From Cyanidioschyzon merolae (lineage: Eukaryota): a DNA stretch of 64,000 nucleotides. Positions 1 to 63,039 of the stretch are shown here, piece after piece. Numbering within the stretch: position 1 is the first letter of the stretch; every line of letters starts with the position of its first letter. Made by a program: the position numbers and the translations under genes. The stretch is from NCBI GenBank assembly GCA_000091205.1, contig AP006499.2; one strand, 5' to 3'. The notes below the pieces were generated by a model. The model did not search any database and was not told where the DNA came from. It saw only the letters and a program-made list of their open reading frames with translations.

Positions 1-919
1 TTGGTATCGCTGCTTCATCGTGCTCCGCTTGAGCGAGCAGATCCGCAGCAACCAGCTCAGCGTTGGCGAAGGCATCTGCAACGACAATTGCCTCGGTTGG
101 TCCATAGATTCCATCGATGTCACAGATCCCGTACACCTCTCGTTTCGCCAAAGTGACGTACAGGTTGCCAGGTCCAACGATTTTGTCGACACGGGGTAAA
201 GTCTGTGTGCCATACGCCATAGCCCCGATAGCTTGTGCGCCGCCCAGACGAAAGACCTGGAACGAAAGCGCCTCATCACGCTTCGTGAGAGCATGACGAT
301 GACGCTCCTCGAGCATTTGCTTGCAGAGGGCGCACGCAGCGAGCGTTACGGGGCTAATGTCATTGCTTTCGCGGGAAGGCGGCGAGGTCACCACGAAACG
401 TCGACACCCCGCCACAATGGCGGGAATCATCGTCATCAGCGCTGTGCTAGGGAGCGCTGCGTTACCTCCGGGAACGTAGAAACCAACAGCTTGAAGAGGT
501 CGCACCAGCTGCCCTACTTGGCCCCCGAGTTTCGTCGTAAACCAGGAGTTGACGGGCTGCTCTTCATGGAACGCTGCGATACGTCGTGCTGCAATGTGCA
601 ACGCCTCATATAGGGACGGTTCGGTCTTTTCCAAACTGCATAGGGCGTGATCCAGCTCCGCCGCAGGTACCTCAAGCGCTTTGGGTGAGTCCACGACAAC
701 TCCGTCTAGCCGCGCGGTCCAGTCCAGGAGTGCGATGTCACCTTGCGTGCGTACGGATTCTAGGATTCGCTGCACTGCCTCCCGGGGGGAAAGTGCCTCA
801 CCGAAGATTTTCAGGATTCTTTCCTGTTGCAGTGCGCTTACTTGATTGAGATCGAGCGGCTTCCGTTGAAGAATGGAGCCAAGAGCCTCCTCCGCAGTAT
901 AGATAGGCACGGGAACCAT
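1..919 (-). CDS. hisD: Histidinol dehydrogenase, N-terminal ~306 codons; the gene continues beyond the window start
   Basis: Manual minus-strand translation from the ATG at 919..917, which is preceded by an in-frame TAG, reads MVPVPIYTAEEALGS...LVRPLQAVGFYVPGGNAALPSTALMTMIPAIVAG...AIGAMAYGTQTLPRVDKIVGPGNLYVTLAKREVYG...LLAQAEHDEAAIP with no stop down to position 1. These are the conserved HisD blocks. It is absent from the ORF track only because it runs off the edge. Confidence 0.85.
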   Translation of the reverse strand, partial: MVPVPIYTAEEALGSILQRKPLDLNQVSALQQERILKIFGEALSPREAVQRILESVRTQGDIALLDWTARLDGVVVDSPKALEVPAAELDHALCSLEKTEPSLYEALHIAARRIAAFHEEQPVNSWFTTKLGGQVGQLVRPLQAVGFYVPGGNAALPSTALMTMIPAIVAGCRRFVVTSPPSRESNDISPVTLAACALCKQMLEERHRHALTKRDEALSFQVFRLGGAQAIGAMAYGTQTLPRVDKIVGPGNLYVTLAKREVYGICDIDGIYGPTEAIVVADAFANAELVAADLLAQAEHDEAAIP

Positions 920-1289
920 TTCCGGTGCAGGTTCCCAGACCTAACCGCCGACGCCCAGTGCTGCGTTTTCCCCCGCTAGTCAAAACCTAAGGTTTGCAGG
1001 CGTGTCTGCGAGTTTTTTGTCGAACTTCACCCCGCACCCGCGAGACTTGAACACAGAACAGGACGAGTGACTCTGGCGGTGGCGAGTAGTGCCTCGTGCT
1101 GCACTCGTGCTCACGCGCTCCGGGTTTCCAGGCAGGCGCGTATCCAGGCCCTACGGCGGTTAATGCTGGAAGCGCACGCTCCACGGGCGTTGTGCGCTCA
1201 CGCTTTGTCGGGTGAACGAGCAGCGCAGTACTCGTCCCTGGTTCGCAACGCTATGTGTCTACCGCTGTCACCTACACGGTTTTTAGTGA

Positions 1290-1740
1290 TGTAGAACTGA
1301 CAGGTAGAAACCGAGGCCCTTGGATACGCGATTGCTGTGTATCGGGAGAACAACAGCTCCACATTGATTGCGCTGCACACCGAACAGCGCCGCCGATTTT
1401 TTTCATTGACAAAACGTGTACTTGTGCCAGCGTTCTCCGATTATGCGGGTTCTCCTTTCTTTTTTGTGTGTTTTCTTTCAGTGCGCGGCGACGTATCCAC
1501 CAACCCCCTACCTCCAAGTTACATACCCTTTACTGATTCCAGGATATTCTGGTCGTTTCATACGTCCCATCGCGTGTGCCTCGTACCTGCCGTTCCGTAT
1601 TCGCCTTTGCGCTTGAACGCTGGAGCAGATAGTTCATGGAGCTGGAACAGCTTTTCTACACCACAGAGGGCGTCGGCTCGAGGCGTGCTTCACCCGACGT
1701 AGAATCGGATCTCGTCGTCAGTTTGTGCTCGGACAGTCTG
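1290..1740 (+). repeat. Dispersed ~450-bp repeat family X, copy 1 (second copy at 56270..56740, same orientation, ~75-80% identity)
   Basis: Direct comparison of the two stretches: ttcattgacaaaacg..cagcgttctcc....ccctacctccaagttacat..ggtcgtttcatacgtcc.atcg.gtgtgcctcgt/ggtgcctgcc..gagggcgtcggctcgag are shared. The spurious ORFs 1337..1702 and 56417..56890 translate the same conserved stretch (PLPPSY..SRIFRSFHTS.RVCLVPA). Confidence 0.6.
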
Positions 1741-1827
1741 CGGATGCAGGCTTGTCTTCGCTGCACGACACGCTGGAGAAACTTGGTTGTTAGGATATAT
1801 CGTGGAAGCCGCCTCTCTCCTTTGTGA

Positions 1828-4740
1828 TCATGCATGGAATGCGTTGTTGTCGGTTGGCAATGCGGGTTTGTGCTTGACACCCACCACAGTGGGTAGGCGC
1901 AAAGAGCGCACTGAGCCCATGTGCGCATCCGATTCGCTGGACCTTCCGCCTAGAAGGTAGCATGTGAGTTTGTTCGCCACTAATGAGCGCTGAGGCTCGG
2001 TTAGCGGACCATCAGTTGCCAGTGCTACACTCAGGGTGAGTGTCCGGCCTTTTGCTATCACGGTGATGTCCAGCTGCTGCTGTCCTTCAAGGAGCTCGCT
2101 GCGCTCCTGCTTCGAGCGCGGGCACTGTAAGCCCAAATATGTCAGCGTCTCGGGGGTCTGGTCTCCAGAGCAGGGACAGTGTGACTCCCAGTGCGACTCC
2201 AGTGTTCCTATACGGCTTAGAGCCGGTGCTGGTAGCCAGATGCCACCAACGCGGATTTTGGCGAGCCACTGGGTACCTCGAGCAAGTCCCGGGAATTCCA
2301 GCGCCTCCCACCAGTACTTGCACGTGTTTGCTAGGTTGTAGTTCCGGTATACAGTCAAGCCGGCGTTAAGGGCGCGATTTGTTCCGTGTCTACGTTCCCA
2401 TATTGTTTGGACCGTTCGCTTGAGGCGGCGGGAGCCTTGTACATTTCTGGGGAACGATTGGAGCGCATTTTCGCCTAAGAGGCGCTTCAGCCAAATCTGC
2501 GCTGATTTCATCCAAGTGTTCTAGCGGTGCGTTGGGGTCTGCATGAAAATCCGACTCAAAGAGGTGCGCATAGTGGGCCCTTTGGCCCGTATACATGCCC
2601 GGCAGCCTGCTGCTATCGCTTCTGTCGAGGCTATTTGGAGTTCAAGTCCGAGTGCCAGCGCGGTGGTTGCTCTGCTCTGCACTGAGCATCCAACAACAAC
2701 GAGTCGCATTGCCCTGTTGGCGGCTGTCTGCGGACGCGAGGCATTTGTGTGCTTCATGCCGCACCACCCAGCACCCCAGGTCGTAGGCTGGATGATACAC
2801 ATCCTTAGTGCCCTCGTACGGATTGCTAAGGGGATAGAGGGGTCGGATAGGACTGGGCGTGCGATCGCTGTACGTCTACGCATCTTGGCGATCATCTCGT
2901 TAACGTGTGCCTTTTCGTCGAGCGTCAGCATGCGACAGACCCTGCAGATAGCGATATTTTTCCCCGATCGGACTTTCCTGATTCTGCAACCGCCACGAGC
3001 GATTGCGAATGCTCTGCGAGTCTCCATGGATGACCATGACGCCGCACTTCGATGCTCCTACGTTCATCTTCCAGCGATCGACCCAGGCGCTGACTTGTTC
3101 CATGCTACCCGCAAGCGTTTCCGGGGCGGGTGCCAACAACACGACATCGTCCGCGAATAGAAGGCCTGCGAGGCGGTTCCTATGCGAGGGCTCTTTACCG
3201 GGCTCTCCGCAGTCTATCCACGGCACCTCAAGTCCGTATTGTCTGCAGTTGTTCAGCGGATCGTTGATGAAGATGTTGAAAAGGAGCGGGGATGCGGGGT
3301 CGCCCTTTTGTAGTCCACGGCGGATTCTTATACAAGGGGTTCTTGAGCTGTCGCCCAGTCGGATGCGCATCCATGAGTCTGCATAGAGCGCACGGAAGAA
3401 CGCTAAGCACTTTCCGGAGACTACGGCACGTTCCATCTTCAAAAATAGAACCTCGTGCGGGACCGTGTCAAAGACCTTTTGGAAGTCGGTGAAGCATACG
3501 TAAGTTGGTTGTCGGTCACGAATAAAGCGACGTTGCGCCACTTCAATGAGGGTCAGGGCATGGCTCATGTACTCCTCGCGGCTCCGGAATCCAGCCTGCC
3601 CTGGGGCGAAGAACTTGCGTTGCTCGAGGCCCCTCTGAGTCCGGTTCGTGGGAATGGCGCAAAGTAGCTTTATGATTGACGGGATGAGGCGCATAGTCCG
3701 GTAGTTGTTCATGTCTGTGTGGGAGTCTTTTTTGAGGATCGGTACGACTTCGGCAGTCCTCCATACATCCGGGATGTACGTTTCTTCGAACATGCCTTGG
3801 ATGAGCTCCACAAGGCGTTTGCCTAAGCTTGTGTCAGGTTCATCTGGTATCGATGGTGTCCCTGTTGTCCCGTCTTTTGGGGTCGTCAGTTTCATCCACT
3901 CCGCAGGGATACCGTCGATGCTAGGTGTTTTGCGGTTGCATGACCTTAAGAGGGTCCGAACAGATTCAGGCCAGAAGATTGGCTCGTTCCATTCCGGTAC
4001 CGGGTCGAGGCGCGGTAGTTCTGCGGCATACTGGTGCCAATAGATTCGGTTTTGGCAGTGCCCAGTTGCGTCTTCATGTAATTCTGTGCCGTGGTCCGTC
4101 CAGGCCTCATTCACTGAGGCACCCTCCGTCCTCAGCGCTTCCTTATAAACGATTGGTGTGAGCCCCAGACACTTTTTTGGTGGGTCAAGTCTCGATCGGA
4201 TATAGCGCTAGGTCTCATCTTCGTTGGTGCTCTCGAGCATAGATTTCGCCAGGGAGGCGATTTTGCGGTTTCGATCCTCCTGTTTGTCTTCTCTGGAAAG
4301 TTTCTTCTTTCTTTTGATAGCTTCCTCATGTTGCGCCTGTAGCGCCGGTAGCGCTGCCTTCGCTTCCTTGTCTCCGGCGTTGGCGCGTATGGCGGTGCGT
4401 TTGACGATCTTATAGAGTCGGTGGCATTCATCAATCCGAGTTTTGGTACATCGTTTCAGGTACTGCGGTTTGCAACTGTTGCGTTCTGGTGCAAGCCGTC
4501 CCGGTTGGTCTAATGATTTGCATGCACGGCTTTTCGGTTCTTCAGCGCTGTGGGTAGGTGACTGAGTTGGGTGACGGCTTTCTTGAGTTCCTGCAGGGGT
4601 GCCCTTTCGGGGGATGACTTGTGATGGGCTCGTTTCGGAGTTCTTCTTTCTAGTCTTCTGTTTTTTCTCGTTGGGCTTCTTCTTCTTCGGGCGCTTTCCT
4701 GAGCTGCTTTCTCTGGATATTTTGCATCTAGGTGGATCAT
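1828..4740 (-). mobile_element. Degenerate non-LTR (LINE-like) retrotransposon: basic ORF1-like peptides, RT ORF, and downstream Cys/His-containing segments split over three reading frames
   Basis: Minus strand, 5' to 3': arginine-rich peptides (ORFs 4510..4740, 4132..4434); the RT ORF 2900..4114; then ORF 2521..3027 (overlaps the RT ORF end in another frame, contains CRVCRML...H) and ORF 1828..2511 (HCPCSGD...C) in a third frame. No AP-endonuclease-sized ORF lies upstream of the RT. Confidence 0.7.
2900..4114 (-). pseudogene. Reverse transcriptase domain of the non-LTR retrotransposon; the frame is broken at both ends
   Basis: Canonical RT blocks in order: SIDGIPAEWMK, NYRTMRLIPSIIKLL, QAGFRSRE, VCFTDFQKVFDTVPHE, LQKGDPASPLLFNIFIND, LLFADDVVLLA (FADD box). 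The continuation requires frameshifts into ORFs 2521..3027 and 1828..2511. Confidence 0.8.
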
Positions 4741-5026
4741 GAGGTTTCTGTGCCTCCTTCTCCGTATCTGGTTGGGTCTCTTTCGCTATTGTAGAGTCCT
4801 CTATTGGTGTCTCTTCTTCGTTAATGTACTGATATTTCGTTAGCTTTTCTCGGAAGGCTGCAAGTGACCTGTTGGTTACTCTCCGGGCTTGGTGGTATGA
4901 AGCGATGCACTGCGTTGCACCGGCGCGCCGCTGCTACCCAGAGGCCGCGCCCTCGACCAGCGTCGCCGCCAAACCGTGCGCGCCCTATCTTGTACTTCGA
5001 GTCGGTTTCATCGTTCTTGTCGAAAA

Positions 5027-5523
5027 TGGCAGACGACGATGCTACTTTCGAGCAGGTATTACGCATGTACGGCAGCAAAACACCAAAATCACAAAAGATG
5101 CTCGCGTTTGTAGACTCCTTGATCCTTTTTCTCGTACCGCTGCTCGCGTACTGCGGGTTTCTGTTCCAGGTGGACGGACGCGATCCACTAATACTGGGAA
5201 CGCTGCTCACCAGTGCGTTGATTGTTATTCCGCTGCTATGGGTTTCTCACATTCGGTATGCACGTGCTAAGCTTGTGCAGCTCCAACGCACTGCAGCCGC
5301 GCCCCAGTCGGACGAAAAGCGTCTGGTACAAGTTGCCATGCTGCGGGCACTCGCTAGCAACAACATCTGGTACTTGGGACTCGTCGCGCTCTGCTGCGGT
5401 CACATTTTTAACGGGCGCTTCTTCGATGCGCTGAACTTTGGCATATCATCGTTGCTGGGAGCGTCGTTTCTTCTGGTAAACGCCTCTGCAGCAATGCAAG
5501 TTGCTCGCGAGAAACGTGCGTAG
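5027..5523 (+). CDS. Small four-helix membrane protein; topology resembles TRAP-gamma/SSR3 (tentative). An in-frame upstream ATG at 4897 would add an Arg/Pro/Ala-rich extension
   Basis: ORF 4864..5523 uses a GTG start. The ATG at 5027 gives MADDDATFEQV..., followed by four hydrophobic segments (LAFVDSLILFLVPLLAYCGFLF, ILGTLLTSALIVIPLLWV, IWYLGLVALCCGHIF, ISSLLGASFLLV) with a charged loop between helices 2 and 3. Confidence 0.4.
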
Positions 5524-19310: not shown

Positions 19311-22300
19311 TAGGAACGCTTCCGTCTCTCAGACGCTTCATTGTTCCCGCGATTCAGCTCCATCTCCGCCTTGGGTTCGAGCTCTCGGTCTAGGTGCACG
19401 AAATAGCGCATAATTAGGGGATATCATCATTTTTTCACCTTTTTTCATATCTGATACCTTTTCTGCTGGGTTGACCGGCCTCAAGGGTGCACGGTGCTCA
19501 TGAATAGTCGCACGGATTATAGAATCCTCATTCGTGCACCTGCGTGATGTCTTCTTGTCGACGAACTCGATCTCCTGTTCAAGCTGGCGATCGTCCGTCA
19601 TCCCATTGGTGATGGCCCATCTTTCCTTCGCGAGAGAGACCCGGTTGGAGTGCAAACACGGCGCATATCATGAAGCCCTGGAGGTTCATGGTTAAACGGT
19701 CTCCAAGTTCGTTAGGTACCGCATGGCCCCGTGGGTGTAAATATTCCAGTCCCTCTGCATCGAGTACCGTAGAAGCTGTAGAAGGGATGCTTTTCGTGGA
19801 GGGCATGCACCCGCTCATTTCCCCTCGAGGTTTCCCCTGTGGCGAGCACCAGGTGGCGGAGAAGGGTCCTGCTGAAAAATTCTTCCGGAACCTCGGCTGT
19901 TTCGATGTCGGCCACGTCTTCATTCATCTCCTTCACCAAATGCATTAGCCCTGACGAAGCCTTTATAACACTCATGGAGTAAGACGCAACACGGTTTCTG
20001 GGAGTCTCTTGCAACGCTTCCTTGGACGGATGCTTGATATGTATAAGATGGCAGGCTTTGACAACCATCACGTCGTTGTGCCGTCTTTCTTGCAGCCTTT
20101 GACGTCGGGCCTCCTTCATTCGCTTCTTTGTCTCGTCCTGTTCCTCTTCGCACTGGACTGTGTGTTCGTTTGTATCCGCCAGCTGGCGACACTGGGCCTC
20201 CAGGAGCCTCCACTTTCACTCGCATAACTTTCCTTTTTAGTTTTTTTTCTGAGAAAGAACGCACTTTGAATGCTTCAGGTATAAACAGCGAAAAATCACT
20301 TGAATACACTTACTTGAGGGTTGGAATACGATTGAACTGAAAAGCATACTTTGCTACGACTTCAATGCAAATACACCGCGTGCAGCAGAACAACACGCTC
20401 TTGATACCGATCGCGTTTCCGTTCAAGAGCAGCATGCGCGAAGTGTCTCGTGTAACTGGCTGATGTCTCTGGTGCACGTGTCCAGCCCCCTACAGAAAAA
20501 AAAACAGAGACTCACGACTAACTGGCAACGATATGACAATTTCTTTCCCCCCTCTAAGGTAAACGTTAAAAGGCGAAAAGGTTTCCATATTGTCGAAAGT
20601 TTATTTTATAGGCGAAACGTCCCGCGAGCCGGACGTGTCTGCCAGACCAGTGCTTCATGCGACCCCAGTGGAAGGTGCTTGCTGGAAACCCGAGCAACTC
20701 GTGCGAAATGCAGTTTATTATGGGACTAGGAGCGGGTATGCTGCGTCAGGGCGTCGGCCTGGTCGCAGTTATCTCCTTACATATCGCTTGGCGCTGCCGC
20801 AGGCACTAGGTCTGTCTGCAGAGCTTGCAGGCTCCCAGAAAGATTATGTACTCTGGCGCTGTATCGGGAAAAGCGCTCCTCGATTGGACGCCCTCTGTGG
20901 TACGGTAACGCGGTTTTGTCTCCGCGATCCATCTGTTCCAGCGGTTTAGGCGCCACTACGGGTGCTCATGGTAGGTACTCGCGCTCGCTAGAACGTAAAA
21001 ACCGACCAGTATGTCCGCGATGAAGCATAGGTAATGTAACTTGGGAGTAGGGAGTTTGATGGATACTTCAATGCGCACTGAAAAAAATAGGAAAAGAAAA
21101 AGCGCATAATCGGCGAACGCTGGCCAATGTCAACGTTTTGTCAATTAAAAAAATCTGCGAATACCTGACCACAACGAAATGGCACCGATGCGACGGGCGC
21201 GCTCAGTTTCCACCCCGAAAAGACGGGAATGACAAGCGCTGCACAAACCGCAACGACCGCTTGTGCGTGATACGTATGAGCAAGAGCCTGGAGCAGTGAG
21301 ATAGGGACCTGGACGCTGCCATCAACATTCTTCGACTGCTGCGAATGAAGCTGGAGTCAAAACGAGAGACCAACGAATTAAAAACCGGAGGTATGAGGGA
21401 GCGAAAGGAGGCTATTGCAGAAAAGGTCCACAAATCCAAAGTATCAATGACTACAGGAAGAGACCAAAACTCTAGCGTGCGCACCCGAGTGAGTAACGCG
21501 GAACCTTCCATGGTAGTCTGCCGTGGGTACCGGGGAGCCCCGTGTCCATCGCGAGACACTCTCGCAGAGCGTCCGCCTTGTTTTCGGAGGAAGCAGGCGG
21601 AAAAGCGGCAACGCCATGCAAGCCTCGTTATGGCGGTCACGTCGCGGGAACATACACACAGCAATGACCCAGCAGTCACGTGCCGTCCGCGGAACCTTCC
21701 GCCAAGGCAGCCACGTTCGAGTGTGGCCATCACGAACGAGCGCTGCAACTCGGGCACGATGACGGCATCCAGTGGGCACAACGGCCATTCACACCCAGTC
21801 TGCGTTTCGCGTTACTTCTGAGGCCTGGAATGGAGTCGAGCTCAGTTCCCCGGAGGCCAATGGAAATCGACTATTCGGCGGATTTCCGGTCCCGCGAGTA
21901 TTGGTCCTACACCACAAGAAAATCGCCATGAGCGCTCCGACGCTCAACCGTATCCCCCTCGTGGGCTCTGTCGGAGCCCTGAGGCACACAACCGGACACC
22001 CGAGTTCTGACCCAGCCACCGGGCAGCTTGGACGGCAAACGCTCAGCGAGCTTAACGCATCGCATCGCTCTGACGACCACATGCACATCAAGCTGGATGC
22101 AACCGAAAACGAAATGCGTGAAACGCCTACTCATGGCGTTCAGGGGATCCCAACGACCACGACGCGGAAGCGACGAAGCGCTCCGCAATCCGGTCGCGTT
22201 TCCGACACATCTGCAGTAAACTTAGGAATCATCGTCGTTTACGCGTATTGCGAACCCGATATGTCAGTATAATTCCGTCCTTCTGATGCCGCTGCGATCA

Positions 22301-22963: not shown

Positions 22964-24323
22964 TCTCGAGAAGTGAACTGTTTACCTCGACGCGTGCAGA
23001 GGCGCGTTCAGCGGCTCACGATTCAGAGCCTACACACAACGCAGAAGACCCGCGGAGGCGGACGACGAGGAGGAAGGGTTCCAGGTCGAGAATCCGCGCG
23101 CTCGGCGGATGCGACGCCTCTTTGCGAGCGCGCCTCGTCAGCCGTGCTCGAAGTGCTTTTGCCGATAACGAAGTGTTTACATTGACCACTGGATCCCAGA
23201 TTATGGGGTGTGTATTACGATTCATGTAGTCGTCCACCATGATGCATCATACCTCCCAGTTCCGTTTCCTGTTTTCGGATGTACCGGTCGTTTTGTACAG
23301 TCTATTGTGCGGCGAGTGCCAGCCGTGCGTTATCCGCCTTGGCGCCTGAACACTGCTGGCGCGGATCCGTCTCGGAGACAGAAGGGCCTAGCCATACCAC
23401 TGAGCGCGTCGGCTCGAAAGGTCGTTCACTAGTCACAGAATTAGGATTCTTTATCGTTCTGGGAGCCTGCAAGCTGCGCAGAGAGACGTACTGGCTGCGG
23501 CAGCGTGTAGCGATATACTGGGAGACCACTGCGACCAGGCCGACGCCCCGACGCTCCCTAACTGCCCTAGTCCCAGAATAAACTGCGCTGCGGACGAGTT
23601 GCTCAGTTGCCACTACAGCACGCGCCACTGCAGCGCCGCATGAAGCACGATCCGAGCAGACTCGTCCGGCTCCCGGGGCCTTCCGCCCATGAGGTAAATT
23701 GTCGACAATGCGGAAAACTTTTCCCCTATTTGGAGTTTACCGTAGAACAGGGAAAGAAATCGTAATCTCATTCCTAGCTACTGATTCGTTTCTCTTTTTT
23801 GTTTTCTATAGCGCGCGCTCGATACGCGCATTTACGTATCTGATAGACTTGAGATATGACGCCACAGAGTCTATGACGTTTCGATCTTGCACTGGGAAAA
23901 GCTTCGGTGCATTTCACACTGCAGGCGCACCCGCTCTCGGTGTCACGTTTCAGGGCAGGGTTGCGGTGCGGCTCACGTCGCCGCGTCTGTTTTCTGCAGG
24001 CGCAGCACGAGGTACCTGCGGAACCCCATAATGGATAATTCTGGACCGCTGGTGAGCCCGCATAACGCAATACCTCTACCAACTGGCACGGATCCGATGG
24101 GTATGCCTAGAACACTGCGAACAGTTGAACTCGTCGTTGCCATGTGCTCGAGCGATGCCCCCGGTATCAGCTTCTTTCCATGCCTGGAAACGTGATCGCA
24201 AGAGGCGGGCCATTGATGCCACGAAATCGGGGTCTCTGGTGGGACAGGCTGCTGTCGTATAGCGCATCGTACCCAGAAAACGCGTATGGGCATGGACATG
24301 CCTCTATGACTGCGTTCCTCATT

Positions 24324-26671: not shown

Positions 26672-28031
26672 CCATACCAGAAGTATACAGAATGGAGACT
26701 CTGACCGTACTCGGTCGCCAAAACGCTAGCATTCCGCTCTCCTTCTATCTATTTTCATCAACATCAGCCTGTGCGGGCTTTGAGTGCGACTGATTCCTGT
26801 CCCTCTCGCTGATCACTGGGCTTACAAATGCCGATGTCTGCATTCGCGTCAGCCGCGCTGCAGCAGTCGAGATACGGTGATGCCAGCGTTCGAGTCCGGC
26901 GTTCGCTGTTTCTGGTTCATCCGCAAGCACTGCATCCACAAGCGGTCGTTACGATCCGTGCGTTGCTGGCCATTTGGAGCCCACGTCTCTGGAGCTTCGG
27001 TGCGGCTGCCGCAGCGATGACGCCTGACTGCGTTCAGGTGCTTCCATGGGTCTGACGCCACACACGTGCTCCTTCGAGCACCGCCTCGTGGCACGTGAAC
27101 GCGCGCGTCATCGCTCCTTGCATGCCACTGACCGCTGCAAAAGGCTGCCTTGGATGCCGTACCCAAAGAGCACGGACTTGTTCTGGGCGATCGCCTTGGC
27201 GAGCACGCTATCGACTGCGTATGCAAGCGACCGCTGCCCCGTTCGACAGAGGATTTGCGGTAAGCGACGTCGTTCGGGATCAGGTATGTACCGGGGGCGG
27301 AATCCAGACTGGAGCGCACGCCCAGCAATGTCGATCGGTCTGCGCTCCCTTCTTCGTGCACAGCGGTGACACGCGCTCTGCTGGAAGCGATCGCTACGAT
27401 GCCTGACGTCCGACTCCAGGGCCCTTTGTAATGCAAACAAGGGAGACGAGCACTTGTGGGCGTATTTTCGCATGAGAGGTATGTTGCTGACGATGTTGCA
27501 TGGTGTGTTGTCGATGCCCACAGAGGGAGAGGGCAGGATTTGTCACTGGAGTGAAATCGATGATTTGACGGAACGCGTTCAGAGAGGGTTCGGTATGCGC
27601 TTGAGACGAAGCCTCACAGGCTCGCCGTCGACTTCTCCTTCACTCGCGGAGGCGGTGACCCGAATCGCCCCGCCCGCGAGTCGCCTCGCAACGGACGGAT
27701 CGGGAGCTTGGAGAACGCGGGATCGCAGGATGCTGTTCGTAAGGGAAGCGGAAGAGCAGAGGCTCGCACGCGTACAGCGGGTAACGAAAGCGGATACTGG
27801 ACAAACCATTCTGGATTGCGTCGCGAATGGTCTTGCTTCTAGTCACGTAACGAATTCCTGCTATGAAAGCGGTAGGAACTACTCCGAGGGTTATCACCGA
27901 AAATCCTAAAAGTGCATGCAAATCCCTGAGCCCCAATCGCTGCACGTGGAATGTCGATGCTATGCTTCTGAATAAAAAACTCGGTGAAAATCACGAGGCA
28001 GGAACAGAGCAAACAATTCAGTGTTCCATTT
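26672..28031 (+). repeat. 1.3-kb dispersed repeat family R, copy A (about 98-99% identical to copies at 40822..42194 and 49271..50658)
   Basis: The ORF-track peptides are identical or differ by 1-2 residues across the three copies (e.g. 26745..26939 = 40900..41094 = 50379..50573; the 195-aa ORF differs only at TYLIP/THLIP and LHTQS/LHSQS). Copy A diverges from B and C a few bases earlier at both ends. Confidence 0.85.
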
Positions 28032-28382
28032 TCACCTGGCGCAAAACTCGCGGTCGCTTTCAGACACTATCTCCGGCAAGCAACGAACAAGGCGAGTGTT
28101 TTCTATGGATCGTGCTGGCAAGTGACAGCGGTCTACACGATACCGTACGCTGAGGTATGCGTTCAGTCTCATTGAACACATCTCCTGGGACTCTCCGAAA
28201 GCATGTACAATGCCCAGGGCCAAGTCGACTTGTAAAAGATCTCTGCGGGCCAATATCCATCCCTAGAAACACGGCTCTCGTCGTGGTGCTTTTCCAGAGA
28301 GCCCCCCGCTTATCCCGAATGTCATTTCCCTCATCCCGAAAGCTGCGCGAACACATGGCGGAGCTTCCCAACGGGACCTTAT

Positions 28383-40821: not shown

Positions 40822-42194
40822 TACACCCATGCCAAAATAAAATGGAATGGGTCCAGTTAGCTAACTCGGTCACCAAAACGCTAGCATTCCGCTCTCCTTC
40901 TATCTATTTTCATCAACATCAGCCTGTGCGGGCTTTGAGTGCGACTGATTCCTGTCCCTCTCGCTGATCACTGGGCTTACAAATGCCGATGTCTGCATTC
41001 GCGTCAGCCGCGCTGCAGCAGTCGAGATACGGTGATGCCAGCGTTCGAGTCCGGCGTTCGCTGTTTCTGGTTCATCCGCAAGCACTGCATCCACAAGCGG
41101 TCGTTACGATCCGTGCGTTGCTGGCCATTTGGAGCCCACGTCTCTGGAGCTTCGGTGCGGCTGCCGCAGCGATGACGCCTGACTGCGTTCAGGTGCTTCC
41201 ATGGGTCTGACGCCACACACGTGCTTCTTCGAGCACCGCCTCGTGGCACGTGAACGCGCGCGTCATCGCTCCTTGCATGCCACTGACCGCTGCAAAAGGC
41301 TGCCTTGGATGCCGTACCCAAAGAGCACGGACTTGTTCTGGGCGATCGCCTTGGCGAGCACGCTATCGACTGCGAATGCAAGCGACCGCTGCCCCGTTCG
41401 ACAGAGGATTTGCGGTAAGCGACGTCGTTCGGGATCAGGTGTGTACCGGGGGCGGAATCCAGACTGGAGCGCACGCCCAGCAATGTCGATCGGTCTGCGC
41501 TCCCTTCTTCGTGCACAGCGGTGACACGCGCTCTGCTGGAAGCGATCGCTACGATGCCTGACGTCCGACTCCAGGGCCCTTTGTAATGCAAACAAGGGAG
41601 ACGAGCACTTGTGGGCGTATTTTCGCATGAGAGGTATGTTGCTGACGATGTTGCATGGTGTGTTGTCGATGCCCACAGAGGGAGAGGGCAGGATTTGTCT
41701 CTGGAGTGAAATCGATGATTTGACGTAACGCGTTCAGAGAGGGTTCGGTATGCGCTTGAGACGAAGCCTCACAGGCTCGCCGTCGACTTCTCCTTCACTC
41801 GCGGAGGCGGCGGCCCGAATCGCCCCGCCCGCGAGTCGCCTCGCAACGGACGGATCGGGAGCTTGGAGAACGCGCGATCGCAGGATGCTGTTCGTACGGG
41901 AAGCGGAAGAGCAGAGGCTCGCACGCGTACAGCGGGTAACGAAAGCGGATACTGGACAAACCATTCTGGATTGCGTCGCGAATGGTCTTGCTTCTAGTCA
42001 CGTAACGAATTCCTGCTATGAAAGTGGTAGGAACTACTCCGAGGGTTATCACCGAAAATCCTAAAAGTGCATGCAAATCCCTGAGCCCCAATCGCTGCAC
42101 GTGGAATGTCGATGCTATGCTTCTGAATAAAAAACTCGGTGAAAATCACGAGGCAGGAACAGAGCAAACAATTCAGTGTTCCATTTTATAATCT
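40822..42194 (+). repeat. 1.3-kb dispersed repeat family R, copy B
   Basis: Near-identical to 26672..28031 (same orientation) and to the reverse complement of 49271..50658. It shares extended ends with copy C (aata.aatggaatgggtccagttagctaac at the 5' end, ccattttataatctaa at the 3' end). Confidence 0.85.
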
Positions 42195-42326
42195 AAAAGA
42201 GGTTAAGGAAAGTAGCACCAATTGACAGGCAGTCATCGCAGCTGGGATGCTGCACCAGCCGCTACGAAGAGCGCAGCGAGCATGTCTTTGTCCTGCATTG
42301 ACGACAAGTTCTGTTAGAGTCCGGGA

Positions 42327-49270: not shown

Positions 49271-50658
49271 CCCCTATTAGATTATAAAGTGGAACACTGA
49301 ATTGTTTGCTCTGTTCCTGCCTCGTGATTTTCACCGAGTTTTTTATTCAGAAGCATAGCATCGACATTCCACGTGCAGCGATTGGGGCTCAGGGATTTGC
49401 ATGCACTTTTAGGATTTTCGGTGATAACCCTCGGAGTAGTTCCTACCGCTTTCATAGCAGGAATTCGTTACGTGACTAGAAGCAAGACCATTCGCGACGC
49501 AATCCAGAATGGTTTGTCCAGTATCCGCTTTCGTTACCCGCTGTACGCGTGCGAGCCTCTGCTCTTCTGCTTCCCTTACGAACAGCATCCTGCAATCGCG
49601 CGTTCTCCAAGCTCCCGATCCGTCCGTTGCGAGGCGACTCGCGGGCGGGGCGATTCGGGCCGCCGCCTCCGCGAGTGAAGGAGAAGTCGACGGCGAGCCT
49701 GTGAGGCTTCGTCTCAAGCGCATACCGAACCCTCTCTGAACGCGTTACGTCAAATCATCGATTTCACTCCAGAGACAAATCCTGCCCTCTCCCTCTGTGG
49801 GCATCGACAACACACCATGCAACATCGTCAGCAACATACCTCTCATGCGAAAATACGCCCACAAGTGCTCGTCTCCCTTGTTTGCATTACAAAGGGCCCT
49901 GGAGTCGGACGTCAGGCATCGTAGCGATCGCTTCCAGCAGAGCGCGTGTCACCGCTGTGCACGAAGAAGGGAGCGCAGACCGATCGACATTGCTGGGCGT
50001 GCGCTCCAGTCTGGATTCCGCCCCCGGTACATACCTGATCCCGAACGACGTCGCTTACCGCAAATCCTCTGTCGAACGGGGCAGCGGTCGCTTGCATTCG
50101 CAGTCGATAGCGTGCTCGCCAAGGCGATCGCCCAGAACAAGTCCGTGCTCTTTGGGTACGGCATCCAAGGCAGCCTTTTGCAGCGGTCAGTGGCATGCAA
50201 GGAGCGATGACGCGCGCGTTCACGTGCCACGAGGCGGTGCTCGAAGGAGCACGTGTGTGGCGTCAGACCCATGGAAGCACCTGAACGCAGTCAGGCGTCA
50301 TCGCTGCGGCAGCCGCACCGAAGCTCCAGAGACGTGGGCTCCAAATGGCCAGCAACGCACGGATCGTAACGACCGCTTGTGGATGCAGTGCTTGCGGATG
50401 AACCAGAAACAGCGAACGCCGGACTCGAACGCTGGCATCACCGTATCTCGACTGCTGCAGCGCGGCTGACGCGAATGCAGACATCGGCATTTGTAAGCCC
50501 AGTGATCAGCGAGAGGGACAGGAATCAGTCGCACTCAAAGCCCGCACAGGCTGATGTTGATGAAAATAGATAGAAGGAGAGCGGAATGCTAGCGTTTTTG
50601 CGACCGAGTTAGCTAACTGGACCCATTCCATTCTATTCTGGAATGAATATAAGACGCG
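49271..50658 (-). repeat. 1.3-kb dispersed repeat family R, copy C (inverted relative to A and B)
   Basis: The ORF-track peptides are the same as in A and B but on opposite strands (e.g. 49882..50469 + matches 41004..41591 -; 50379..50573 + matches 40900..41094 -). Confidence 0.85.
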
Positions 50659-56269: not shown

Positions 56270-56740
56270 ACAGCATCGAGTATCGAACTGCAGCAATATG
56301 GGCGTACGAATTCATACGTGGTTTAAGATTCGTGGTTGTCTTTATCGGAATGGCTTTTACGAATCTATGCTGCGGAAATTTGTTTTGTTTATTTGTTTCA
56401 TTGACAAAACGTTTACATGGGCCAGCGTTCTCCAATTGTGCGCTCTTTCTGCTCCCACATTTTTTTGTGTTTTTTCCAGTACACGGTGAAGTATCCATCA
56501 AACGCCCTACCTCCAAGTTACATGTCCCATACTTCTTCTCGGATATTCAGGTCGTTTCATACGTCCTATCGTGTGTGCCTGGTGCCTGCCGAAAGCGACC
56601 GCAATGGAGTCTTTAGCGCCGATGCGTTCGCTGCACGGAGACAGAATGGCGTTGCCGTACCACACAGAGGGCATCGGCTCGAGATTCGTTCTGGTAAGGG
56701 AATCGGGAAGATTCGCGACGCACTCGAAAAAGCGTTTGAA
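56270..56740 (+). repeat. Dispersed repeat family X, copy 2
   Basis: See the feature at 1290..1740. Confidence 0.6.
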
Positions 56741-62054: not shown

Positions 62055-62765
62055 ACATGCATCCCCAGGGCGAAGAACAACTTTTTACATCTATGGAGCG
62101 TATGGAAACCCATACGCAGACGCCGCGCAGCATTTTTGACCGGCCTCCTGCCACCGATATCAGTTTTTACCCCAGCACACTTTGAGCTTGAGAGTCTGGG
62201 CCACGAAGTTGAATCGCGTCGGATCCTTGGGTCTCGTCTTCTGCACCGCACACTGTCTGATATTAACAGCGACTTTAAGTCTCAGTTCATAAACTTAATG
62301 CGCGTATTGCCCCTGGCTGAACTCACCAGTGGACGGACTGCTAGAACTCGCGCCTTCTGTGCCACTACGGTCTCTTCAGTGTTCCGTCGGGCACACACTT
62401 TTTCCCGCCTATTTCCACTCTTCCTCTACGTCACATGCTCGGCTTCGCTCGATGCTAGGTGACAAGACAATTTTGTCTGTTTTTTCTTGAACCCGGCGAC
62501 ATCGGTACTCCAGGATCGTCGACTTGCTTTTCCATAACTTTCCTTTTCTAATTTTTGTCTGAAAAAGAACGCTTTTTGAACGCTTCTTTTATAGACTGCA
62601 AAAAACCAATCGAATACACTTGTTTGAGGTTTGGAACTCAAATGAATTGAAAGACTGTACTTTGCTTCGACCCCAACGCAAATACAACTTTTTCCGGTAG
62701 AACAACACGCTAATTGATCGGGATCATGTTTCCCTCCAACGGCGACATGCGCGTCGTGTCTCATG
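62055..62765 (-). mobile_element. Internally deleted Fanzor-family derivative, copy 3 (both ends retained, ~0.7 kb)
   Basis: The minus strand reads ...EETVVAQKARVLAVRPLVSSARGNTRIKFMN*DLK(frameshift)VAVNIRQCAVQK, collinear with copy 1's RLALVSTINDGKKRMEFVNRDFNAAINIRKCVV. The 3' motif aggagGCCGGTCAAAAATGCTGCGCGGCGTCTGCGTATGGG is at 62110..62148. The 5' end 62465..62765 aligns with 20150..20465 (cataactttcctttt...tctgaaaaagaacgc...atacactt..ttgagg.ttggaa...actttgct.cgac...gcaaataca...agaacaacacgct). Confidence 0.6.
62110..62148 (-). other. Conserved 3'-terminal non-coding motif, Fanzor family copy 3
   Basis: See the alignment in the findings. Confidence 0.4.
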
Positions 62766-63039
62766 TCTGCCCGATCTCCCAGGTGCGCTCACCGCCGCGA
62801 CGCATGCACCGCGCGAGACGGTACTCCGATCGATGAAGGACACGTGTCCGATGCCGCACTGGCACATGCGTGTTCTCACCAGCGCACTGCAGCTGCAATC
62901 CAGTGTCCTAAATCGGAAACTCACGTAGAATTATCTCCTGCTATAGGCCATGTCGCTGGTGCCCATCGCAGTACCGACCTGACATACAAGGAGATGTTGG
63001 GGCCTCCCACAAAAGCCCTGCAACGATTCCAGCAAACGC

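Follow-up and report, generated by a model that had tools for sequence, protein, structure and literature searches.

A decayed retrotransposon copy of Cyanidioschyzon merolae, probably from a LINE family of L1-like ancestry without an AP-endonuclease

A broken LINE copy between two genes

The window, a stretch of 64,000 nucleotides of contig AP006499.2 of Cyanidioschyzon merolae 10D (assembly GCA_000091205.1), contains a single decayed non-LTR retrotransposon copy located between a HisD gene and a membrane-protein gene, on the minus strand, from 4845 (possibly 4922) to 1396. The original prediction had recognized a non-LTR retrotransposon at 1828-4740. Its identity was right but its extent was too short, as homology with 15 other copies, retrieved from metagenome loci by blastn, reached from 4845 to about 1396. 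The features are listed below in the order in which they would be transcribed.

4846-4922, minus strand: 77-nt 5' segment, unalignable to the family consensus and common only to copy L001 and the orthologous copies of related strains
1396-4845, minus strand: body of the LINE copy, corresponding to family-consensus positions 806-4310 with 92.5% nucleotide identity (blastn to 15 metagenome copies)
4211-4845, minus strand: Lys/Ser/Thr-rich N-terminal segment and pre-RT linker, in the RT frame, where relatives have the AP-endonuclease (APE)
4208-4210, minus strand: premature stop TAG, by which the Trp of the consensus DETWRY is lost
3020-3736, minus strand: reverse transcriptase (RT) domain, Pfam RVT_1, with the catalytic FADD at 3157-3146
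2944, minus strand: 1-nt insertion, which shifts the reading from the RT ORF to the 2521-3027 ORF and gives rise to a spurious "CRVCRML"
2524-2943, minus strand: post-palm (thumb) region, homologous to the same stretch of relatives
2521-2523, minus strand: premature stop (Lys to stop), splitting two ORFs of the same frame
1831-2520, minus strand: C-terminal domain, helical, resembling the C-terminal region of human L1 ORF2p, followed by the family's own stop at 1830-1828
2122-2178, minus strand: degenerate CCHC knuckle, CPCS-x9-Y-x4-C, with two of the four ligands changed
1396-1827, minus strand: 3' UTR, ending in a tail module of ~295 nt (1690-1396) that also occurs alone elsewhere
1598-1631 (approximate, mapped from alignment columns 63-97), minus strand: 3'-tail hairpin with compensatory changes

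The family consensus is 4.3 kb long and the window copy lacks its first ~805 nt. The 77 nt at 4922-4846 could be either a variant 5' end or sequence foreign to the element. Several traits identified the family as LINEs: an RT of LINE type with an F/YxDD motif, whose PDB matches were R2 and L1 ORF2p, and scattered copies with a shared 3' end, variable 5' ends and no terminal repeats. Searching 900-5500, we found neither LTRs nor terminal inverted repeats (no direct repeats of at least 20 nt, no flanking inverted repeats), and no Rfam family was detected within the window.

The closest matches of the RT, with 83-87% identity, were NCBI proteins named "retroelement, alive [C. merolae 10D]". These proteins and the elements described by Nozaki et al. 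(2007) belong to the same family as the window copy, and they lie in the same genome, as four proteins encoded in the window were identical to C. merolae 10D proteins. The C. merolae genome contains 26 class I elements, which are non-LTR-like and about 4 kb long (Nozaki et al., 2007; PMC1955436); our literature search found no paper assigning them to a clade or describing their domain architecture. Unlike the annotated set, the window copy carries no protein annotation, has two stops and one frameshift of its own and is missing the 5' 805 nt. Conversely, the 348-aa "alive" proteins stop after CGDAR, whereas the window copy keeps the ancestral frame through FADD. The annotation should thus be corrected, as the proteins labelled "alive" end before the catalytic FADD.

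The flanks of the family copies were unrelated to one another, indicating that insertion is not site-specific. No target site duplication was visible at the junctions of the window copy, L004 and L013, in a family whose copies are ~10% diverged, and no telomeric repeats were found beside the copies. Since related strains (L032-L035) already carry the window insertion, they offer no empty site; orthologous copies in these strains decay quickly by deletion. All copies end ...GTCAATGAAAAAAAT; the terminus ...TGAAAAAAAT is common to the 15 copies, whose flanks are unrelated. The hairpin of the tail is 94% paired, with compensated changes in 6 of 10 pairs, and solo copies of the tail were found attached to a different body.

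One reading frame and its domains

The window copy corresponds to one long reading frame, broken by the TAG at 4210-4208, the additional nucleotide near 2944 and the TAG at 2523-2521. These lesions bear out the suggestion that the copy is a pseudogene. The RT frame is open from at least 4924 to the first of them and encodes the Lys-rich segment and the family pre-RT linker, with a 45-nt in-frame deletion near 4506 in the N-terminal segment. Having no start, two stop codons, one frameshift and two mutated zinc ligands, the copy cannot make the family polyprotein. The two ORFs located 3' of the RT (2521-3027 and 1828-2511), described previously as lying in other frames, in fact share one frame and are separated by the stop at 2523-2521. 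The "arginine-rich peptides" noted upstream (ORFs 4132-4434 and 4510-4740) turned out to be out of frame, and we rejected them as an N-terminal or ORF1-like product.

As predicted, the 404-aa ORF at 2900-4114 (minus strand) encodes a LINE-type RT, with a Pfam RVT_1 match over residues 127-365 (E = 5.1e-20) that includes FADD at 3157-3146. The Cys/His motifs reported downstream of the RT were only partly confirmed. The "HCPCSGD...C" motif (2178-2122) stands at a genuine CCHC position, which reads CPCC...(H/Y)...C in other family copies and CPxC-x(7-10)-H-x4-C in relatives. By contrast, "CRVCRML" (2946-2926) is a product of the additional nucleotide near 2944. The true reading is YRYLGVCLTPT, and this site is YRYLGVCLTPTLDEK / YxYLG in the family and in its relatives; "CRVCRML...H" was therefore rejected as a zinc finger, being the YLG region read across the insertion.

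About 100 residues follow the CCHC motif, with only R and GG as invariant positions; neither a conserved acidic/lysine triad nor a PD-(D/E)xK signature was found there. AF2 models of the C-terminal domain were all or almost all helix, and their match to L1 ORF2p was about twice as good as that to R2. A Foldseek search against PDB returned nothing significant. The C-terminal profile had no match among PDB sequences at E<=10, and the alignment of R2 proteins to the family profile ended just past the CCHC. The family has a C-terminal domain of the L1 ORF2p type carrying a CCHC motif.

At the other end of the protein, the consensus ORF has ~155 residues before the shared linker, compared to 340-560 in relatives, and a Lys-rich segment of ~95 aa stands in the place of the APE. 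The predicted lack of an APE 5' of the RT held: Pfam applied to the three sense frames of 5020-1300 returned only RVT_1. No APE was detected by Pfam at E<=10 in the consensus protein and in the 5'-most 1.2 kb translated in three frames, nor by tblastn searches of all Cyanidiales loci with the APEs of Pylaiella and Synchytrium, and BLASTP recovered no APE remnant. A putative APE relic of ~15 residues at the consensus N-terminus (IGFASWNICGIAS) appeared in the MAFFT alignment only, BLAST and HMM searches being blank. No ORF1 was detected in the 5' region of the consensus, which is 738 nt long (stops in all frames, no Pfam match), and Pfam identified no N-terminal zinc-finger or Myb domain. All Cyanidioschyzon-type copies examined lacked an APE and none had a restriction-like endonuclease (RLE). 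An APE-bearing copy could exist among the other 25 copies of strain 10D, since the full-length copies considered here all come from metagenomes.

Relatives of the family

The closest relatives outside Cyanidiales, from Synchytrium, Pylaiella and Ectocarpus as well as many metagenome proteins, all have an APE upstream of the RT. Full-length relatives are 1100-1400 aa long and combine APE and RT; Exo_endo_phos was recovered upstream of the RT at the Synchytrium and Pylaiella loci (E = 2.5e-7 and 5.6e-8), and the seven top matches of an exhaustive HMMER search all had both domains. More widely, this APE-RT-CCHC clade includes members from brown algae (Ectocarpus, Pylaiella, Laminaria), fungi (Synchytrium, Smittium), Galdieria, Chlorella and metagenomes. 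They share with the Cyanidioschyzon family the pre-RT linker, an RT with 33-44% identity and the C-terminal domain with its CPxC...H....C and LLGG motifs, but they have a ~200-aa N-terminal Exo_endo_phos domain where the family has a Lys-rich low-complexity stretch. Weak zf-RVT matches were obtained in relatives, which are named in their sources "LINE-1 ORF2", "Transposon TX1" and also "jockey". As the relatives bear an APE and no Cyanidioschyzon-type copy does, the family appears to have branched off from an APE-type, L1-like clade and to lack the APE of that clade. We thus consider the window copy to be, in all likelihood, a dead member of a C. merolae LINE family that has no APE, no RLE and an L1-like ancestry.

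The original prediction had favored an R2/NeSL/CRE-like LINE with an RLE after the CCHC, 3' of the RT. The failure of Pfam and tblastn to detect an APE and the position of the CCHC after the RT are compatible with such an element, and R2 proteins were the top PDB sequence matches of the RT, with an alignment extending through the CCHC. We nevertheless regard it as highly improbable. Its nearest relatives all bear an APE, the ~100 residues past the CCHC have no conserved D, E or K and no PD-(D/E)xK signature, the models of the C-terminal domain are helical and fit L1 ORF2p about twice as closely as they fit R2, the C-terminal profile matched no PDB sequence, the flanks differ from copy to copy, and "CRVCRML" results from a frameshift. 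The match scores placed the window RT among APE-bearing elements (E = 1e-46 to 1e-53, compared to 2.5e-15 for R2), the very placement that had been named as evidence against an RLE-type element.

The named clade is not fixed by these comparisons, because R2 scored slightly above L1 ORF2p with the RT and the order was reversed only for a full-length relative. Thus, R2 and L1 matched the window RT with E-values of 2.5e-15 and 1e-11, the RT alone gave 59 bits with R2 proteins and 47 bits with L1 ORF2p, and the profile from RT to C-terminus gave 139 and 124 bits, respectively, whereas L1 ORF2p was the best PDB match of the full-length relative from the pre-RT region on (103 versus 68 bits for R2). 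The family shares with R2 and other RLE-bearing LINEs a similar RT, a CCHC after the RT and the lack of an APE, but differs from them by the absence of an RLE and of an N-terminal zinc-finger/Myb domain, by APE-bearing relatives and by insertion that is not site-specific. With L1/Tx1-type LINEs, such as human L1 ORF2p, it shares the order RT-thumb-CTD and the C-terminal CCHC. It differs from L1 by the lack of an APE, by the absence of a detectable ORF1 in the 738-nt 5' region and by a 3' end of constant sequence, including an A7 run, instead of a long poly(A), and scores based on the RT only give L1 no advantage over R2.

Possible mobility of a family without endonuclease

The family encoded a single polyprotein, in which a Lys-rich N-terminus and the linker preceded the RT, and the thumb and a C-terminal domain resembling that of L1 ORF2p, with a CCHC, followed it. 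Active members probably used target-primed reverse transcription, in which their RNA was copied from a chromosomal 3'-OH, and the RT presumably recognized the specific ~295-nt 3' tail with its conserved hairpin and its end ...TGAAAAAAAT, and not a long poly(A). An element that does not nick its target would have depended on a priming end from another source. This end could quite possibly have been provided by pre-existing breaks or nicks, in a retrotransposition independent of endonuclease; with similar reserve, we can imagine an APE-bearing master acting in trans, since lost or unsampled.

The 4.3-kb APE-less elements might accordingly be non-autonomous deletion derivatives, mobilised by a master of their own family that was full-length and bore an APE, a serious possibility though not a probable one. 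Mobilisation in trans is evident here, as a subfamily comprising 10 of 14 copies, together with the "alive" proteins, shares a 1-nt insertion that stops the frame before FADD and was nevertheless amplified, and there are elements that have only the LINE tail in common. The rapid decay of orthologous copies by deletion also fits this reading. However, 15 loci, some 70 protein fragments from Cyanidiales and the exhaustive HMMER search yielded no APE-bearing close relative, the best long matches being only 27-34% identical, and no APE was seen beside the linker of L031, a second lineage with 54% aa identity. The comparison of the L031 RT with the family consensus gave a dN/dS of ~0.2, and this purifying selection between two lineages without detectable APE argues for autonomous elements, in which the in-frame subfamily, including the window copy, used its own RT on existing nicks or breaks. 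Such autonomy, which we propose tentatively, is also consistent with an APE-less architecture found in all copies of a family whose ancestral ORF can otherwise be reconstructed, with the new ~95-aa Lys-rich segment in the place of the APE, with the low copy number (26 per genome; PMC1955436) and with a host that lacks classical NHEJ (PMC6635534), C. merolae being the only free-living protist reported to do so. On the other hand, the mobility itself is deduced from sequences, the APE-less state of L031 could result from a 5' truncation, no clear target site duplications are visible at ~10% divergence, and the copies have no association with telomeres.

Taken alone, the window copy is unremarkable: it is an old, broken LINE, and the 26 retroelements of this published genome had already been counted. 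What stands out beyond this is the architecture of the family, which seems to belong to an APE-bearing, L1-like clade and yet has no endonuclease in any copy examined.

Known endonuclease-deficient retroelements comprise EN-minus Penelope-like elements at telomeres and endonuclease-independent L1 insertions; like the Cyanidioschyzon family, they encode an RT and no nuclease domain. The window copy differs from EN-minus Penelope-like elements in being internal, between two genes, and no copy has telomeric repeats beside it. Morrish et al. reportedly observed in 2002 that L1 can retrotranspose without its endonuclease in NHEJ-deficient cells. It is conceivable, though rather unlikely, that the Cyanidioschyzon family (perhaps with L031) lost its APE, gained a Lys-rich segment and, with an RT kept under selection, multiplied on breaks that it did not make. 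If self-mobile, these elements would make C. merolae, whose 16.5-Mb genome has 26 copies and which lacks classical NHEJ, a compact and genetically tractable system for endonuclease-independent retrotransposition, and the family would be a natural counterpart of the endonuclease-independent retrotransposition of L1.

Extent, reading frame and decay of the LINE copy

The element, a member of a C. merolae non-LTR retrotransposon (LINE) family, is located on the minus strand between two genes:

1-919, minus strand: histidinol dehydrogenase (HisD) gene (Pfam, E=2.6e-80)
2900-4114, minus strand: reverse transcriptase (RT) ORF, 404 aa (Pfam RVT_1, E=5.1e-20, residues 127-365)
3157-3146, minus strand: FADD motif of the RT
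5026-5523, plus strand: divergent 165-aa gene, ATG at 5026

The RVT_1 match and the FADD motif bear out the identification of this ORF as an RT in the original prediction. The HisD ATG lies at ~919, with ~477 bp between HisD and the 3' end of the LINE. On the other side, the ATG of the 165-aa gene, which has no Pfam match, lies 104 bp from position 4922. In a search of 5.8 billion proteins, the top named matches of the RT were two C. merolae proteins annotated "retroelement, alive" (83-87% identity), followed by many hot-spring metagenome fragments.

The window contains a single RT copy, and a metagenome scan yielded 15 close copies (L001-L015), whose blastn homology to the window spans 4845 to ~1396. 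Every copy terminates in ...GTTTTGTCAATGAAAAAAAT followed by unrelated DNA, thus placing the 3' end of the window element at 1396/1397. In seven copies the element begins ~770-800 nt upstream of the point where the window copy starts, and their 5' flanks are also unrelated. The majority consensus of the copies is ~4.3 kb long, and its positions 806-4310 are matched by the window copy at 92.5% identity. A 77-nt segment (4922-4846), common only to L001 and to the orthologous copies of related strains, may be a variant 5' end of the element or sequence outside it. A 20-nt imperfect palindrome around GGCGCGCC (window 4910-4941) sits exactly at the upstream edge of this segment. Neither direct repeats nor flanking inverted repeats were found around the element.

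Projected on the consensus, the window copy is a single long frame which has lost its first ~22 codons, ATG included, and carries the following lesions:

near 4506, minus strand: 45-nt in-frame deletion
4210-4208, minus strand: TAG stop
near 2944, minus strand: 1-nt insertion
2523-2521, minus strand: TAG stop
near 2407, minus strand: 3-nt deletion

This copy is non-functional. In the RT frame there is no stop over 4924-4211 at least; this part encodes a Lys/Ser/Thr-rich segment followed by the pre-RT linker. The original observation was largely real, with details mis-framed: the "arginine-rich peptides" (ORFs 4132-4434 and 4510-4740) are artefacts outside the RT frame, the supposed Cys motif CRVCRML is the product of the additional nucleotide on YRYLGVCLTPTLDEK, in the YxYLG region of the RT, and ORFs 2521-3027 and 1828-2511 share a single frame.

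Affinities of the family and its C-terminal domain

The element had been read as possibly bearing a restriction-like endonuclease (RLE), as in R2/NeSL/CRE-type elements. Against PDB sequences, the window RT scored 59 bits with R2 proteins and 47 bits with human L1 ORF2p. Among its nearest matches beyond the Cyanidiales are proteins of Synchytrium (E=6.5e-53) and Pylaiella (E=2.4e-46), and at both genomic loci an AP-endonuclease (APE) domain, Exo_endo_phos, was detected just upstream of the RT above Pfam's cut-off (E=2.5e-7 and 5.6e-8, respectively). A profile search recovered many full-length relatives of 1100-1230 aa, including Ectocarpus and Galdieria proteins, with APE at ~22-225, RT at ~570-850 and CCHC at ~1075-1110. 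In an exhaustive HMMER search with the N-terminal/linker protein of the family (P0024), the part preceding the shared linker was 340-560 residues long in every long relative, versus ~155 in the family, and APE was found in all seven long relatives checked. The full-length Ectocarpus relative best matched L1 ORF2p in the PDB (103 bits; R2, 68 bits), and weak zf-RVT matches recurred in the relatives. On these grounds, and as judged from sequence comparisons, we call the clade APE-type and L1-like, RT-only scores not separating L1 from R2.

Distant relatives with intact proteins could be aligned to ORF 1828-2511 over their C-terminal regions (alignments A1, A3, and A5). The predicted HCPCSGD...C motif occupies a genuine CCHC position, but two of its ligands are mutated: the knuckle reads CPxC-x(7-10)-H-x4-C in relatives, CPCCG(D/N)ETPETLT(H/Y)LGLQC in some family copies and CPCSGDQTPETLTYLGLQC in the window copy (second Cys to Ser, His to Tyr). 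The proteins stop ~100 residues past the knuckle, where the only invariant residues are one Arg and the GG of "LLGG"; the alignments of relatives contain no conserved Asp, Glu or Lys there that could form a PD-(D/E)xK site. AlphaFold models were all helix for the relative P0180 (pLDDT 92, pTM 0.81) and, for ORF 1828-2511 (pLDDT 81, pTM 0.68), helical apart from a single short hairpin within a lineage-specific insertion. This C-terminal region, together with the APE-bearing nearest relatives, refutes the RLE reading; the family encodes an RT and an L1-like C-terminal domain, and no nuclease.

The missing APE and the 3' tail

The absence of APE 5' of the RT held up: Pfam detected RVT_1 alone in the consensus protein, in three frames of the consensus 5' 1.2 kb and in three frames of the window element, and tblastn with APE sequences of relatives as queries, run on the window, the consensus and every Cyanidiales locus, gave chance matches only. 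MAFFT aligned the start of the consensus, MRYDSIGFASWNICGIAS, to the first APE strand of relatives (e.g., LKAVSWNIAGLEG); ~190 residues of the relatives are then absent, replaced by ~95 Lys-rich residues, and homology restarts at LDQLAREFVDG. MRYDSIGFASWNICGIAS is a lead, as a putative relic of the first APE strand; the window copy lacks this part of the consensus. Another LINE lineage of Cyanidiales, more distantly related (L031, 5427-8141; RT 54% identical to the family in amino acids), has the linker and no adjoining APE, at a locus that may be 5'-truncated. Its RT ORF compared with the consensus gave pN 0.28, pS 0.67 and dN/dS ~0.2.

The terminal ~295 nt of the LINE (1396-1690, minus strand) recur without the rest of the element at two further sites in the window, where they adjoin a different body. 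Solo tails were recorded at:

56391-56683, minus strand: solo LINE tail
20864-21159, plus strand: solo LINE tail
23250-23417: solo LINE tail

The tail copies have a common start point and all end in ...GTCAATGAAAAAAAT; the different upstream body joins the tail at 20490-20864 and 23276-23811. These tail-sharing elements look like a non-autonomous partner of the LINE. A hairpin in the tail (~1598-1631) exhibits compensatory changes between LINE copies and solo tails, with 94% of cells paired (slid controls, 25-57%) and both-side changes in 6 of 10 pairs.

The 3' ends of the family are fixed. Insertion would proceed by target-primed reverse transcription, during which the 3' tail would be recognised. 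The priming 3'-OH may have been supplied by a lost APE-bearing master or may come from pre-existing breaks; the latter are attractive because classical NHEJ has been reported absent in C. merolae (PMC6635534).

Other repeats lie in the window:

26709-28032, plus strand: 1.3-kb repeat copy
40828-42202, plus strand: 1.3-kb repeat copy
49271-50645, minus strand: 1.3-kb repeat copy

These three copies share 99% identity; their ends are sharp and their flanks unrelated. The repeat, which has no ORF of at least 200 aa and no Rfam match, may represent a non-coding mobile element that was active recently, or else a converted duplicate. A ~630-bp repeat (L001 1-631; window 19854-20449 and 62469-62794) adjoins the LINE 3' terminus in L001, L010, and L015 and the LINE 5' end in L008 and L012. 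By its size, it is a candidate for TE-N2_CMe, a 635-bp element that makes up the 5' portion of Fanzor element CMe-1A (Bao & Jurka 2013, PMC3627910).

Subfamilies, strains and genome setting

An extra T at consensus ~2493 (window ~3203) is present in 10 of 14 copies and in both NCBI "retroelement, alive" proteins (P0003 and P0006), and brings the frame to a stop at CGDAR*, before the catalytic FADD is reached. Stopping there, the "alive" ORFs cannot by themselves yield an active RT, and it must therefore have been the RT of another element that copied the frameshifted subfamily. The ancestral frame is kept at this site in the window copy, L004 and L005, and likewise in L031.

Related strains, whose flanking genes are 94-99% identical, share the insertion and its 5' junction and differ in their 3' deletions. 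The insertion is old, and none of the related strains offered an empty site. The strain locus L032 (13430-14270 and beyond) keeps only consensus 806-1691, followed by a TCP1/HSF gene region in place of HisD, and in L033 (13428-14997) consensus 2109-3761 is absent; this suggests that the strains differ structurally at this LINE.

Four window ORFs match BAM82004, BAM82010, BAM82011, and BAM82017 of C. merolae strain 10D (1,232,258-bp chromosome) at 100% of residues; window GC is ~55%. The red alga genome paper counted 26 class I elements in C. merolae; BLASTX placed all of them nearest to non-LTR retrotransposons, their size was taken as ~4 kb, and for three the RT reading frame was intact in transcripts (PMC1955436). 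The 26 include the window copy. It is an element of a known kind in a known genome, in which the APE-less architecture of an L1-like LINE family is modestly interesting.
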